Of a DNA stretch of 64,000 nucleotides, positions 33,001 to 45,000 are shown one piece after another. Made by a program: the position numbers. Positions within the stretch are counted from its first letter, which is position 1; each line of letters opens with the position of its first letter. This DNA comes from Bdellovibrionales bacterium (lineage in GTDB: Bacteria; Bdellovibrionota; Bdellovibrionia; Bdellovibrionales; JAUICD01), in contig OZ253553.1 in NCBI GenBank assembly GCA_965262715.1, positions 288,001 through 352,000 on the forward strand, in the 5' to 3' direction.

Positions 33001-36000
33001 CGAGTCTCTTCCCATTCTTATCATCAGTTTTTATCACTACTTATCTCTTTTGAATCTATATATAATGCTTGCAAATTGAACTTGAATGGTCATGCCGAAT
33101 CCCAGAATAAAGAAGGTTTAAGTTGTCATGAACCTTTAGTTTTTATTATCTATTAATTTTTCTATTTGTTGAACAGTATCAAAGATATCATCAAAGGGTT
33201 TAGTAAGACTCATATCAGCAAGCTTTGCTAAGGATTTAAAAGTGTGTTGATCTCCTGTATAGGCTGACATCACTGCAATTTTTGCTTTTGGCAGATCGTG
33301 TTTCATTCCTAATATCTGATTACCACTTAAATATGGCATGATAATATCTAACAACACAATATCAGGTTTTTCTTTCTTCCAAATATCTATTCCTTCTCTG
33401 CCGTCTTGGGCCATAAGAACTTTATGATTCTTTGATGTAAACACTCGGTTTAAGGCATGTCTTATGATTTTATCATCATCAATAATTAATATCTTCAAAA
33501 TATGATCCTTATTCTTCTTGTGTGTTTTTATCAGGAGTTTTTACCGAGGGCAATCGGACGATAAATTGTGTCCCCTGTTGAAACTCTGTATTGTGAAAAA
33601 TCTCCCCATTGTATTTTTCTATAATATTTCTGCAAAGGTACAATCCTAAACCTGTTCCCTTACTTGCCATCTTTGTTGTTACAAATGGCAAAAATATTTG
33701 TTTTCTGATATCTTCTGGAATTCCTGGACCATTATCACTTACTCTTAATTCTACAAAATCAGATCCATTATGATTTATAACATTTGTTTCAATAGAAATT
33801 TCACCCTCTTCCTTGATGGCTTGACAGGAATTATTGATAAGATTAAAGACCACTTGTTGAATCAACTGCGATGAAACATTTACAAAAGATCCCTTTGAGT
33901 TAAGATGTATATCTAATTTGTGCAGCTGAGTGGCAGCTTTTAAAAAAGATAGGGTTTTTTGTACTAAATCATCAATCTCTACAGTATCTGGAGTTGTATG
34001 AGTCGCTGTGAACTCTAGTAGATTTTTAATAACATCCTGACACCTTTTTAAGGCTCTTTCAATTTCTATAATATCTTTATACAATTGTGAATGATTTTCA
34101 GCTTCTGCGGCAATGATCTGGGCCATTGCCCTCATCCCTGTTAAAGGATTATTGAGTTCATGAGTTATATTACCAGCTAAATGACCAAGAGCTGCCATTT
34201 TTTCATTTTGTATTACTTGTGAGTAAAGTTTTTTTGCATTTGTGATGTCCCTATAAATATAAACTTTATTTTCACTCATCTCTCCTAAGCCAGATTTTAA
34301 ATCCATAGGAAAACATCTTATCTCAAACAAGCGGTTGCCAATATTCATTTGATATGTAGATTTTTTTTGTATATGACTCATTTGCTTTTTAAAATCATTA
34401 AAATGCAGTTTTTGGAAACTTATATTGCATCTTAAAATACGATAGGAGTTATCAACTATGGCTATGGGATCAGAAATCACATCAAATGTTTTTTGCCATG
34501 TTTTAGCTATTGCCATCAATTCATTGTCATGAAAAATACGTTGAAAAGATATTTCTATACCTTGCATGTTTAATCTCATATATTGTTTGAAATCTTTAAG
34601 TTCATTTTCTTGAAAAACATGTTCAAAAAATAATGAGCCATGTTTTCCAAAAGGAATTTCAAGAAGTTGTCCTAAAGGTCTACCTAAAATATCAGCTAGG
34701 GTTTTGTGGATAAGCTGGTCCTTGTGTTTTTCTCTTGATAATCTTTGTTTTCTGATCATTCGACTTTGAAGATAATAAAAAGTAGGATCTTTTTTTAAAT
34801 GATTGACAATCAAAAGAGGGCCAATAATATGATGCCATCTTTTGTATTCATCTTTTAATGTGAGTAAATACTCTTCAAAGCCCGTTGCTATACTCAATTT
34901 TTGTACTAAATGTACTAATCTTTCTATTTTAAGTTTCTTTTTTTGAGCATCCAATTGAGCGGCTTTAATATGCTTCGTTCTGTCTTGGACTTTCTTTTCT
35001 AACTCTTGCATAGTTGTCTCTAAGTTTTTATTGATCAAAGTGATCTCTTCCACAATTTTGATTCTATTTATAGATAATGAGTACTTGTCTATGGATTTTT
35101 TGATCAAAGAAAGTATGTCTTTTATATCCCATTTGGAATTAAAGATACCTAAAACATTAACTTTATTCACACAGTTTATAATTTCTCGACATGTTAAGCT
35201 ATTAGCATATAAAAGGCACTTTGTGTCCGGATAGATGTTTTTCAAGTGAATTAAAAAATCTAAAAATGGGATATTTGACAAAGCGTTTCGGATGTTCTTT
35301 GAAGACTGCTGTACAATAACTGCTGCAAAATGTGATTGTGATATTTTGTGTTGAGCTGCTTTTAAATCTTCTGCATAGAAAACTTGTATTTGAGGGAACT
35401 GAGCCCCTATGGCAGGAATTAAATCTTTTTTTAAAAAAGATTGATCCTGCTTGTTATGAGTATTATTTAGACATATCAATAGATTAAGTTTTGTCATTTA
35501 CAATTATAAAAGAACTTTACGTGATAACTTGATGCGCCCTGTACGATCAATGTCTAAAACCTTAACATTGATTTTTTCTCCTTCTTTTATATAGTCTGTT
35601 ACATTCATGACTCTTTCATTTGCGATTTCAGATATGTGTAATAACCCTGTGGTGTTAGCTAAAATCTCTACAAAAGCGCCAAAATCTGTAACTTTAACAA
35701 CCTTGCCTTCATAAACCTTACCTAATTCTGGATCTGCAACAATACTTTTAATAATTTCTAAAGCACGTTTTCTATCTTCTAAATTTGAAGATATGATATT
35801 CACTGCACCGTCATCTGTAATGTCAATCTTAACACCTGTTGTGGCAATGATTTCCTTGATCTTACGACCACTAGGTCCTATAATATCTTTTATTTTGTCT
35901 GTATTGATCTTTAATGTCTCTATTCTAGGCGCGAATTCAGATAATTCGCTGCGAGGACGAGAGACGACTTCCTCCATCTTATCTAAAATTGTACTCCTGC

Positions 36001-42000: not shown

Positions 42001-45000
42001 TTTGCGCTTTTAGTAGAGTCGCTGAGATTTTGAGATGACTTTGTTTGTGTATCTGTATTGATCTTAATATCTTCACTTGAATCTTCTATTATTTTATCTT
42101 CTGTGGCAACTTGTTTTATCTCTGAGATACCTGGAGCAGGTAGGTTTTTATTTGCGCTTTTAGTAGAGTCGCTGGGATCTTGAGATGACTTTGTTTGTGT
42201 ATCTGTATTGATCTTAATATCTTCTTCTTTTTTCTCTTCTGTTTGTTGATCATTGACTTGCTTTTTAGTTTGTGATGTTGGAGCGGTACTTTCGCTTGCA
42301 TCTTGCGTTTTTGTAGCAAGTGATGGGATCTGCTTATCCTTATATTCTTCAATAAATGCCTTAGATTCACCAATGAGCTTGAGGGCTTTGTTTTTATCCT
42401 CATAACCAGGAATGGCCATAACTTCCTCTGCTGTGGCTTCTGCTAAGGATTTAATAGAGCTAAAATTGCTTTGATAAATATTTTGAGCCATTGTATCTGA
42501 GATATTTTCAAGGAGAGAAAGGTTGAAGATAGCCTCTGCTTGCCTTTTTGCGACATCAGATTCAGAAACAATTTTCATCTGCCATCCTGTGAGCTTTGTG
42601 GCTAAGCGAACATTTTGACCTTTTTTACCTATAGCTAAGCTAAGTTGTGCATCTGGTACGACAATCTCCATTTCTTTATTTTCTTCATTGATAAAAACTC
42701 TTGCCACTTCAGAAGGTTGAATGGCGTTGCAGACAAAGTTAATAATGTCCTCTTTGAAAGGAACAATGTCTATTTTTTCTCCTTGTAATTCCTGTACTAC
42801 GTTTTGTACACGACTTCCTTTCATGCCCACACAGGCACCTACAGGGTCAACAGCATTATCTTTAGAAACAACAGCTATTTTAGCGCGAGAACCTGGTTCT
42901 CTAGCTGCTGCCACAATCTTTACAATTCCATCATGAACTTCTGGAACTTCAATCTCAAACAGCTTGATCATATATTTCTCGTCTGTTCGTGACATAATGA
43001 TTTGTGGGCCTCTCCCTGTCTGCTTGACATCTAAAATATAACCTTGAACACGATCTCCAGGTTTATAGATTTCTCCAGGGATCTGCTCACTTTGAGGTAA
43101 ATAGGCTTCTGTTCGTCCTAGATCAACCACAATAGTTCTGTATTCCACTCTTCTTACAATCCCAGAAGCAATTTCTCCTCTTCGTTTTTCAAATTCTTGA
43201 AAGATGATTTCATGTTCTGCATCACGTACTTTTTGCATAATGATTTGCTTAGCTGTCTGAACAGCTACTCTTCCTAAATCTGATGAGTCCATTTTAATCC
43301 CAATATAGTCACCAATTTTGCATTCAGGGTCTAATTCTTTAGCTTCTGCAAGCTTGATTTCTACCTCTTCATCCACAAAGGTTTCGGGGTCTACGACTTC
43401 CTTGAATTGATGCAATTCAATTTCACTGGAATCTTCATTATAACTAGATTCAATCTCCTTATAAGTTCCATATTTTTTTCGAGCAGCCAGCAACATCCCT
43501 TGAACAATAGCATCAATAACAATTTGTTTTTGGATGCCTTTATCCCTTACTATGGTCTCAATCAATTTGTCTAAGCTAGAAAATTCGGCACCCATTTTTC
43601 ATACTCCTTAAAAGCATTTATCTTATCTTTTAAAATCTTATTATAAAAAAAGTGGGTTGTAACCCACTTTGAACACCTATTAATGACTTATAGTAAGTAG
43701 TATAATCCATTAATTTAAAATTGAAACTCTTATGGTATAGAAACACCAGAAAAATAAACACTAACTCTTAATATCAGTTCATTAAAGTCCTGGCAAGCAC
43801 TATTTGCCATAAATATATCAAGTGAATTACCTCAAAATACAAAATATATGCTATCGAAGCAAGGCCATTTTGTTATAGAAAATATGTTCTTATTGGTATT
43901 AACAAACTCGGAGTATTTCAATTTATACTGCTGATTTCAAAATAACTCACCCGATGCTCCTTTCAAGCTTCATCTCTATCAATTTGACGGCTTCTACAGA
44001 AAATTCTAATGGTAACTTTTGAAAGACTTCTTTGCAAAAACCATTAACTAAGACAGAGACAGCATCCTCAGTGCTTAAACCCCTCGATTGCAGGTAAAAG
44101 AGTTGGTCTTCACTCATGCGAGTGGTGCTAGCTTCATGCTCTAATGTGACAGATTTGTTTTTGACTTCCATGTAGGGGTAGGTGTGAACACTGCTTTGAT
44201 CTTCAATAAGCATAGAGTCACATTGAGAGTAATTTCTAGCTCCTTTTGCTGAAGGGAGTATTTTAACAAGCCCTCTGTAAGTATTTGATGATTGATCTGC
44301 AGAAATGCTTTTAGAAATGATAGTGCTTTTTGTATTTTTGCCTATATGAATCATTTTGCTCCCTGTATCTGCTTGCATGTGACCATTTGTTAAGGCAACA
44401 GAATAGAAGGCACCAGAGGAATGATCTCCTTGTAAAATACAACTAGGGTATTTCCATGTGATGGCAGATCCAGCTTCAACCTGTGTCCATGTGATGCGTG
44501 AGTTTTCTCCAATACATTTACCTCTTTTTGTGACAAAATTGTAAACACCCCCTTTGCCATTTTCATCTCCAGAATACCAATTTTGTACTGTAGAATAATT
44601 GATTTGAGCGTTTTTTAAAGCTACAAGCTCTACAACAGCGGCGTGAAGTTGGTTGTTGTCATACATAGGAGCTGTGCATCCTTCGAGATAATTCACAAAA
44701 CTTCCTTCTTCTGCAATCAAGAGGGTCCTTTCAAATTGGCCTGTATCTTGAGCGTTGATACGAAAATAAGTGGACAAGTCCAGAGGGCAGCGAACGTTTT
44801 TTGGAATATAGCAAAAAGAACCATCACTAAAAACAGCAGCATTTAAGGTAGAAAAAAAGTTATCTCCTATAGGCACGACTGTTCCTAAATGTTTTTCAAC
44901 AAGCTCTGTATGTTCATTAACAGCGTCACTAAATGAGCAAAAAACCACCCCCGCTTTTGAAAGTTCTTCTTTATGGGTTGTGCCAATAGAGACACTATCA

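Follow-up and report, generated by a model that had tools for sequence, protein, structure and literature searches.

We analyzed a window of 64,000 nucleotides (contig OZ253553.1, positions 288,001 to 352,000) from a Bdellovibrionales bacterium whose genome, here G000, is a single contig of 2,939,090 bases (about 2.94 Mb) with 38 tRNA genes. The minus strand of the window carries a conserved cluster that runs from nusA to pnp (Table 1). As the preliminary description stated, nusA, infB, and pnp still lie together, and all are on that strand; rimP and rbfA, which normally lie beside them, are missing. For comparison, we used G001, an independent and also single-contig genome from the same genus (g1); G002, from the sister genus, which has all four of the genes discussed below; and G003 and G004, which belong to genus g3.

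Table 1. The nusA-pnp cluster of G000, with positions counted within the window
Feature	Position	Strand	Evidence
pnp, polynucleotide phosphorylase, 699 aa	35504..37603	-	Pfam RNase_PH 192.5 bits, PNPase, KH_1, S1
rpsO, ribosomal protein S15, 92 aa	37648..37926	-	Pfam Ribosomal_S15 105.9 bits
truB, tRNA pseudouridine-55 synthase, longest ORF 333 aa	37962..38963	-	TruB_N 141.8 bits; TIGR00431 190.2 bits
infB/truB junction, the empty rbfA site	38960..38963	-	4-base overlap of the longest truB ORF with the infB stop
infB, IF2, 874 aa	38960..41584	-	Pfam IF-2 116.5 bits, GTP_EFTU, IF2_N
nusA, 653 aa	41634..43595	-	Pfam NusA_N 106.4 bits, KH_5, S1
350-bp non-coding gap upstream of nusA, the empty rimP site	43596..43946	-	no ORF of at least 50 aa
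sufB/sufD-type Fe-S assembly gene, 479 aa, upstream neighbor of nusA	43947..45386	-	Pfam SUFBD_core 263.5 bits

In G002, the order of the cluster is rimP-nusA-infB-rbfA-truB-rpsO-pnp. G003 and G004 lack only rbfA from this order, and G000 lacks both rimP and rbfA, with the flanking genes contiguous at both canonical sites. The pnp gene, which closes the cluster, is 62-64% identical to pnp of G002, G003, and G004. Directly upstream of nusA, those three genomes have rimP (ORFs of 175-212 amino acids). When we searched the corresponding gap in G000 locally by tblastn with three RimP proteins, nothing rose above noise (best E = 3.4). The gap does contain a terminator-like hairpin (positions 43670-43649; 9 pairs and a T run; 1 site vs. 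0.2 expected). Also, the NusA_N domain starts at residue 10, so there is no RimP fused in front of NusA. (The C-terminal tail of NusA contains tandem repeats at 41769-42224, with a period of 153 bp, 3.0 copies, and 97% matches.)

Between infB and truB, G002 has an rbfA ORF of 134 amino acids. G003 and G004, which lack rbfA, have 14 and 60 bases between these genes. At the junction in G000, local tblastn with nine RbfA proteins returned nothing beyond noise (best E = 1.2). We also considered the long front end of truB as a possible remnant of RbfA, but when compared to an RbfA alignment with hhalign it reached a probability of just 0.13%, and we rejected it.

Genome-wide searches of G000 did not find rimP, rbfA, or rsmG (gidB) at other locations. 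With the curated models (cutoffs of 34.7 bits for RbfA, PF02033; 22.7 bits for RimP_N, PF02576; and 27 bits for GidB, PF02527), the sole match to RbfA in G000 was of 13 bits (E = 0.25), within a 664-amino-acid ORF; there was no match to RimP_N at E ≤ 10; and the top match to GidB was of 15 bits (E = 0.018), in a 278-amino-acid ORF. The RbfA and GidB models identified their genes in G002 (59.7 and 113.3 bits) and had no match in G001, G003, or G004. RimP_N scored 56.9-78.5 bits in G002, G003, and G004, and found nothing in G001. We then used proteins from relatives (10 Era, 9 RbfA, 3 RimP, and 1 RsmG) to search all 38,321 stop-to-stop frames of at least 30 amino acids in G000, and the best E values were 0.57 for RbfA, 1.7 for RimP, and 1.8 for RsmG (the G002 protein, by phmmer). 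Whole-genome tblastn had no match to these three proteins at E ≤ 0.01. For 207 of the 1275 G000 ORFs of 70-260 amino acids, which were compared to the RbfA and RimP alignments with hhalign, the best probabilities were 6.4% and 4.4%. We also looked for pseudogene remnants at each of the five sites where the genes would be expected. There, tblastn (word size 2, E ≤ 10) gave only short, scattered matches in which queries and sites were not consistently paired, and the best of these (E = 0.058) was an RbfA query at the wrong site. Finally, G002 has the gene order mnmE-mnmG-rsmG-parA-parB. In G000, the same genes are scattered and rsmG is missing: downstream of mnmG (760481-762379) come a 530-base gap and then genes on the opposite strand.

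The fourth gene is era. We required of a true Era that it be a protein of about 300 amino acids and score at least 116.25 bits over the whole 270-position model (TIGR00436), which includes the GTPase domain and the C-terminal KH domain. G002 (199.1 bits) and G004 (167.5 bits) have such a protein, and by this model Era is absent from G000, G001, and G003. The top match in G000 is below the cutoff (74.7 bits), covers model positions 2-165, and lies inside the 465-amino-acid MnmE. Indeed, all of the matches to the Era model that we checked in G000 are Der, MnmE, YihA, Obg, HflX, FeoB, or IF2. (Apart from MnmE, the G domains were assigned with 424.8 bits for Der, 388.1 for Obg, 449.4 for HflX, 194.2 for YihA/YsxC, and 402.5 for FeoB.) A profile of the 10 Era proteins from relatives also found only other GTPases in the frames of G000. 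The KH_2 domain (PF07650) has two matches in G000, in S3 and NusA; in G002 and G004 there is a third match, which is Era (57.1 and 49.5 bits). These two genomes have the order rnc-era-der. In G003, rnc is followed by 64 bases and then der, with era missing. In G000, rnc is followed by an ankyrin gene, and der is preceded by an unrelated ORF of 275 amino acids. We considered this ORF as a diverged Era or a substitute for it. It has no match in Pfam or NCBIfam, and hhalign against Era gave a probability of 0.11%. Furthermore, it is specific to the genus: in G001 it is split over two frames and lies away from der, and it is absent from the Era-less G003. Overall, curated models, profiles from relatives, and tblastn bear out the original observation that Era, RbfA, RimP, and RsmG are not found, and all of the scores reported with that observation are reproduced (the genomes then called G004, G001, G002, and G003 are our G002, G004, G003, and G001).

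The estimated completeness of G000 (92.69%) and its contamination (3.29%) might suggest that the absences are artifacts of assembly or binning, but we find this hardly credible. G000 is one contig whose GC skew turns at two points (1.01 and 2.60 Mb); the four genes are missing at three separate loci with contiguous neighbors; all four absences are replicated in G001; and losing such marker genes would itself depress the completeness estimate.

Because absence is judged here by homology, there is also room for a very diverged protein or an unrelated substitute. That the genes are present but have diverged past the reach of the models, or have been relocated in the genome, is very unlikely. RbfA and RimP are small, g1 and g3 are on long branches, and the score of RimP, which is 78.5 bits in G002, is already down to 57-60 bits in g3. 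However, G000 still shares 64-70% identity with genera g2 and g3 in NusA and 50-63% in IF2, so orthologues should still be detectable, and yet the relatives' profiles found nothing in any frame. Nor is there space for the genes where they would be expected, as the rimP gap has no suitable ORF and infB and truB abut, and there is no third KH_2 domain that could belong to Era.

Replacement by one or more unrelated, lineage-specific proteins that took over at the platform and neck of the 30S subunit seems doubtful to us, although it is less easily dismissed. A 2023 review describes Era as essential in most bacteria tested (PMC10582724), which makes a substitute plausible, and many ORFs of G000 have no family match, including the 275-amino-acid ORF that takes era's place upstream of der. 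But that ORF is the sole positional candidate and, as described above, it fails. Beside nusA-infB, G001 has ORFs for EF-G, a CNNM/CBS protein, and a radical SAM protein, plus two unknown ORFs, of which the one with 121 amino acids is not RbfA-like (probability 0.94%).

Other factors that act on the 30S subunit have been retained. KsgA/RsmA (129.9 bits), RimM (51.7 bits), and YbeY (105.8 bits) are present in G000, and all three are found in 5 of 5 genomes of the family. G000 also keeps RNase III, PNPase, Der, Obg, HflX, and YihA. KsgA/RsmA acts on helix 45 (h45) and has been described as a late checkpoint. The model scores confirm the preliminary description as to RimM, YbeY, Der, and Obg, but given this whole set of retained proteins, its proposal that the small subunit matures without the canonical late checkpoint proteins was overstated.

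RsgA is missing as well from G000, G001, G003, and G004, and we considered it as a fifth lineage-specific loss. But it is missing from most of the order (29 of the 37 genomes in the comparison, among them all 6 from family f6 and the single one from f10, two families of the same order), so its absence is not specific to genus g1.

Judged by its 16S rRNA, the ribosome of G000 is not reduced. The 16S rRNA is full length (model positions 1-1533, 1533.4 bits), with a canonical h45, a 3' end of GGAUCACCUCCUUU, and an intact 530 loop in which the target G527 is conserved in sequence. We looked for changes at the sites of Era, RbfA, or RsmG and found none in the 3' tail, the h45 loop, or the 530 loop. 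The lineage-specific changes in the 16S rRNA are mostly from G:C to A:U pairs. Changes in ribosomal protein S5 that suppress the loss of RbfA in E. coli have been described (PMC4509935). Three of these suppressor sites (G28, G87, and A127) are identical across 7 genomes without RbfA and 24 genomes with it. At site 91, G000 and G001 alone have V, where each of the 29 relatives has A or S; M at site 100 is confined to g1 and g3. As compensation for the loss of RbfA, these S5 changes are suggestive at most.

The graded series among the relatives that was noted before is real. G002 has all four genes; G004 lacks rbfA and rsmG; G003 lacks era too; and G000 and G001 lack all four, which is the case for no other genome among the 37 compared. 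In a tree of NusA, IF2, TruB, and PNPase, g1 and g3 form a clade (100% support) that is sister to G002. This topology implies that rbfA and rsmG were lost before g1 and g3 split, that rimP was then lost in g1, and that era disappeared on two occasions, in g1 and in G003. The two longest branches in the tree are the ones that this clade unites, and long-branch attraction could therefore have produced it; in that case, rbfA and rsmG were lost twice. Across the phylum, Era had no match in 34 of 401 genomes, one of which was later overturned. Loss of Era is thus recurrent within the phylum, and the 401-genome sample suggests that there are several further Era-less families.

Natural loss of Era has been described before. 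The 2023 review reports it for Chlamydia, Dependentiae, and most CPR, and calls these groups extremely genome-reduced, with simplified ribosomes (PMC10582724). The genus of G000 is a new lineage of this phenomenon. The likeness is that era is not recognizable in a lineage whose relatives have it, and that G000 is probably host-associated, judging by its ankyrin-like ORFs; the difference is that G000 has a 2.94 Mb genome and a full-length 16S rRNA (1533.4 bits) with a canonical 3' end. Bdellovibrionota, the separate phylum to which the genus is assigned, appears neither in that review (PMC10582724) nor in the main text of the MBE 2025 study. The CPR study includes only 20 genomes from this phylum (PMC12641178), which would be why large surveys missed its Era-less families.

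The closest parallel for the joint loss is in CPR. A preprint reports that era and rbfA were lost together in some CPR classes; that rimP and rsmG are nearly absent or below 10% in CPR; and that outside of CPR, era and rbfA are highly conserved in symbionts and parasites (bioRxiv 10.1101/2024.11.29.625318). CPR often lack der or obgE as well and have small ribosomes. G000 resembles CPR in having lost all four genes jointly, but unlike many CPR it keeps Der (424.8 bits) and Obg (388.1 bits). Laboratory mutants of E. coli without rbfA, rimP, or rsmG, and Era-depleted cells, lack the same factors. In E. coli, however, era is essential and the loss of rbfA is costly, whereas the lineage of G000 is naturally without all four. 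Overproduction of Era rescues the loss of rbfA in E. coli, and overproduction of ksgA rescues an era mutant. The review also describes how Era, RbfA, RsgA, and KsgA are linked genetically at helix 45 (PMC10582724).

We favor the explanation, at a probability of about 60%, that era, rbfA, rimP, and rsmG were deleted from the genus of G000 and that nothing recognizable replaces them. What we observe in these uncultured organisms is the absence of genes, and from this we infer the mechanism. The 30S subunit would mature with the remaining KsgA (at helix 45), RimM, YbeY, RNase III, PNPase, Der, Obg, HflX, and YihA. Era, RbfA, RimP, and RsmG speed up and proof-read assembly and are no part of the finished ribosome. 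Their loss, one after another, could therefore be tolerated by an organism that grows slowly and is under weak selection. Signs of such a lifestyle could be a single rRNA operon (G000, G001, and G003 have one 16S match each), the long branches, and the rearranged genome. Furthermore, 42 ORFs of G000 match an ankyrin protein (E ≤ 1e-5), and these roughly 42 ankyrin-like ORFs suggest life with a eukaryotic host. As signs of slow growth, the one rRNA operon and the ankyrin genes are only hints.

The review describes Era as essential in E. coli and in many other bacteria (PMC10582724); an uncompensated loss would therefore be unexpected. A bolder reading, which we consider rather unlikely, is that this phylum broke its dependence on Era repeatedly, in mid-sized genomes with full-sized 16S rRNA, that in this family it happened only after RbfA was lost, and that the 30S subunit of g1 compensates. 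Era would then have been lost twice inside a clade without RbfA, after RbfA had gone. The compensation might involve an A to V change at residue 91 of S5, which is the strongest site of RbfA suppressors in E. coli, along with G928:C1389 to A:U in h28 and A694G in the 690 loop of h23, in the platform.

Era has been treated as nearly indispensable, and in the 2023 review the groups named as having escaped it are all extremely reduced (PMC10582724). Here, a genome of 2.9 Mb with a normal 16S rRNA is without Era, RbfA, RimP, and RsmG together. The intermediate states of its relatives provide an order of loss for comparison with E. coli genetics, and KsgA, RimM, and YbeY form a short list of retained factors that may suffice. 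If the 30S subunit does compensate, then the family would be a natural series in which the ribosome grows independent of its late assembly factors.

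The genome under study (G000) is a single contig of 2,939,090 bases (completeness 92.69%, contamination 3.29%). The preliminary description held that four 30S assembly factors, Era, RbfA, RimP and RsmG (GidB), are missing from it, and curated models, profiles built from the lineage's own proteins, and tblastn all confirm this. With the curated models, the top match to Era (TIGR00436) scored 74.7 bits (cut-off 116.25); the single match to RbfA (PF02033) scored 13 bits (E = 0.25); RimP_N (PF02576) matched nothing at E ≤ 10; and the top match to GidB (PF02527) scored 15 bits (E = 0.018). 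The scores reported earlier recur in our searches (199.1, 167.5, 59.7, 56.9-78.5, and 113.3 bits).

We counted the factors in 31 genomes: G000 and 30 relatives, among them G001 (same genus, g1), G003 and G004 (genus g3), and G002 (a sister genus), which with G000 make up one family. Era was above the cut-off in 28 of the 31 (absent from G000, G001, and G003). RbfA was found in 24 and was absent from G000, G001, G003, G004, G010, G016, and G026, the last of which is only 77% complete. RimP_N and GidB were each found in 27, with RimP_N absent from G000, G001, G026, and G027, and GidB from G000, G001, G003, and G004.

For a harder test, we searched all 38,321 stop-to-stop frames of at least 30 amino acids in G000, with relaxed filters, using lineage profiles built from 10 Era, 9 RbfA, and 3 RimP proteins of relatives and, for RsmG, the protein from G002 alone. 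The best E-values across these frames were 0.57 for RbfA, 1.7 for RimP, and 1.8 for RsmG, and the Era profile found other GTPases only. Similarly, tblastn against the whole genome gave no match to RbfA, RimP, or RsmG at E ≤ 0.01, and with Era it matched only G domains, such as that of Der. The G domains that the Era model matches belong to Der (424.8 bits), Obg (388.1 bits), HflX (449.4 bits), YihA/YsxC (194.2 bits), and FeoB (402.5 bits), as well as to MnmE and IF2. The KH_2 domain occurs in G000 only in S3 and NusA; in G002 and G004 there is a third match, in Era. (G004 also has two S3-type KH_2 matches, at C11 35213-35431 and C14 167585-167803, on different contigs, with scores of 68.4 and 72.6 bits; this could reflect a duplicate or the 3% contamination.) Finally, profile-profile comparison of 207 of the 1275 small ORFs in G000 gave nothing above 6.4% probability.

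The places where these genes lie in relatives are empty. In G002, the nusA cluster reads rimP-nusA-infB-rbfA-truB-rpsO-pnp; G003 and G004 have the same order without rbfA, with 14 and 60 bases between infB and truB; and G000 has neither rimP nor rbfA, with the longest truB ORF overlapping the infB stop by 4 bases. In G001, EF-G, a CNNM/CBS gene, nusA, and infB are followed by unrelated genes. The 350-bp gap upstream of nusA in G000 contains no ORF of at least 50 amino acids; it does contain a terminator-like hairpin, 53 bases ahead of the nusA start. NusA_N begins at residue 10 of NusA, so no domain is fused ahead of it. At its other end, in the C-terminal tail, NusA has three tandem repeats of 153 bp (51 amino acids; 97% matches) that are nearly identical to one another and make the protein longer than the ORFs of relatives (495-552 amino acids).

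Features of G000 (window positions, or positions on its contig C1)
Feature	Numbering	Position	Strand
sufB/D-type gene	window	43947-45386	minus
hairpin upstream of nusA	window	43670-43649	
nusA (653 aa)	window	41634-43595	minus
nusA tandem repeats	window	41769-42224	minus
infB	window	38960-41584	minus
truB	window	37962-38963	minus
rpsO	window	37648-37926	minus
pnp	window	35504-37603	minus
histidine kinase and response regulator (listed after pnp)	window		minus
ankyrin-type ORF (phmmer only)	window	25462-26607	
275-aa ORF upstream of der	C1	471169-471996	
der	C1	472018-473370	
16S rRNA	C1	1040549-1042076	
S5	C1	2132577-2133080	
rnc	C1	2364943-2365644	
ankyrin-repeat gene	C1	2365771-2366739	
S3	C1	2840873-2841553	

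The era site reads rnc-era-der in G002 and G004, and in G003 just 64 bases separate rnc from der. In G000, rnc is followed directly, at the place of era in relatives, by an ankyrin-repeat gene (Ank_2, 153.9 bits), and der lies elsewhere, 21 bases downstream of a 275-aa ORF. This ORF has no family match and recurs only within the genus, there in two frames and at a different place. The rsmG site of G002 reads rnpA-yidD-yidC-jag-mnmE-mnmG-rsmG-parA-parB; in G000, the stretch from rnpA to mnmE is preserved, mnmG and parAB lie elsewhere, and rsmG is missing. (The GC skew of the contig turns at 1.01 and 2.60 Mb.) Local tblastn at the nusA cluster and at the era and rsmG sites of G000 gave only noise, and G001, an independent single-contig genome, shows the same four absences. 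Given these empty sites and the agreement of G001, we take the loss of era, rbfA, rimP, and rsmG to be real.

The graded series of losses among relatives that had been described is also real. In a maximum likelihood tree of NusA, IF2, TruB, and PNPase (10 genomes, 2,301 columns, LG+G4+F), g1 and g3 form one clade with 100% ultrafast bootstrap, sister to G002; no other branches in the tree are as long as those of these two genera, so long-branch attraction may have drawn them together. On the simplest reading, rbfA and rsmG would have been lost once, ahead of the split between g1 and g3, and rimP in g1. Because G004 retains era, two separate losses of this gene would be needed, one in g1 and one in G003.

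The preliminary description also proposed that 30S maturation here runs without the canonical late checkpoint proteins. That interpretation is supported only in part: the genes are indeed lost, and in graded fashion, but KsgA (129.9 bits), RimM (51.7 bits), and YbeY (105.8 bits) remain, as they do in all five family genomes. RNase III, PNPase, Der, Obg, HflX, and YihA are also present in G000. In excerpts of a review on Era (PMC10582724), this GTPase is described as acting at an early stage on the platform, with KsgA, RbfA, and RsgA coming after it around helix 45. Of these four, G000 retains KsgA only: RsgA was not found in G000, G001, G003, or G004. RsgA is missing from 29 of 37 genomes compared, including all those of two other families of the order (f6, 0/6; f10, 0/1), so its loss is not peculiar to g1. 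Within the family, only G002 has it (C53 56915-57439, 174.7 bits); all seven same-order genomes checked outside the family lack it.

The single 16S rRNA gene of G000 is full length (1533.4 bits), with a canonical h45, the GGAUCACCUCCUUU end, and an intact 530 loop with G527. We compared 16S rRNA across 14 relatives and E. coli, and counted a column as lineage-specific if it differs from a base that is invariant in the other 12 relatives; there are 17 such columns in g1, 11 in g3, and 7 in G002. Most of the g1 changes turn paired G:C into A:U, including G928:C1389 in helix 28, as expected because the genome is 34% G+C. A694G and C699U, in the 690 loop of helix 23, are specific to g1; A694 is a platform base of functional importance. 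Positions 694, 699, 928, and 1389 (E. coli numbering) are invariant in the 12 relatives and E. coli.

In ribosomal protein S5, the sites of RbfA suppressors in E. coli include G28, G87, and A127 (PMC4509935), all of which are unchanged. At site 91, A is the residue in 21 of 24 RbfA-positive relatives (S in the other 3) and in the five RbfA-less genomes outside g1; V occurs there in G000 and G001 only. The E. coli suppressor allele G91A matches what is normal for the order, where 26 of 31 genomes have A and 3 have S. At residue 100, M is confined to the RbfA-less clade of g1 and g3. These changes in 16S rRNA and S5 correlate within a single clade, which does not establish compensation. The S10-spc ribosomal protein cluster, which is normally contiguous, is split in g1: ~708 kb separate S3 from S5 in G000, and in G001 the two are on opposite strands at a distance of 20 kb. 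In G002, G003, and G004 they share a strand and the distance is ~4 kb.

Across the phylum, Era was matched (E ≤ 1e-28) in 367 of 401 genomes of at least 90% completeness. The 34 others include all sampled members of four families (f19, 0/6; f22, 0/10; f25, 0/2; f17, 0/1), whose genomes are 1.6-3.0 Mb, and parts of f6. When we scored all candidates in 19 of the 34, 18 still lacked Era. The exception, G053, has a split match within a 380-aa ORF (C3 38717-39241; 85.6 bits at positions 104-270, 157.8 bits with its neighbours), which is an Era, probably with an insertion, that was missed at the stricter survey threshold. RbfA, RsgA, RimP, and RsmG were compared across the 37 genomes. All Era-less genomes checked in f19, f22, f25, f17, and f6 retain RbfA. 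Of the 11 examined in f19 and f22, nine have no RsgA, RimP, or RsmG either (G074 retains RimP and G052 retains RsgA). In family f16, RbfA is absent from 4 of 4. Era and RbfA are both absent only from G000, G001, G003, and G072 (90% complete, in 140 contigs), and the set of Era, RbfA, RimP, and RsmG is missing as a whole only from G000 and G001.

A single 16S match was found in each of G000, G001, and G003, and G000 has 38 tRNA genes. Also, 42 ORFs of G000 match the ankyrin protein behind rnc at E ≤ 1e-5, which may point to an association with a eukaryotic host. Together with the split S10-spc cluster, these features fit a slow-growing bacterium, probably associated with eukaryotes and under weak selection.

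Excerpts of a survey of ~15,800 genomes (bioRxiv 10.1101/2024.11.29.625318, PMC12641178) report that more than 90% of genomes outside the CPR have rsmG and rimP. Conservation of era and rbfA is described as high in those genomes, symbionts and parasites included, with joint loss of era and rbfA in some CPR classes. The main text of the survey does not mention Bdellovibrionota, which number only 20 genomes in the supplement. Literature searches, at the level of listings, found no paper linking Bdellovibrionota with loss of these factors. The g1 case adds a new lineage to an already known kind of loss; what sets it apart is the size of the genome, the intact ribosome, the loss of four factors in combination, and the preservation of intermediates.
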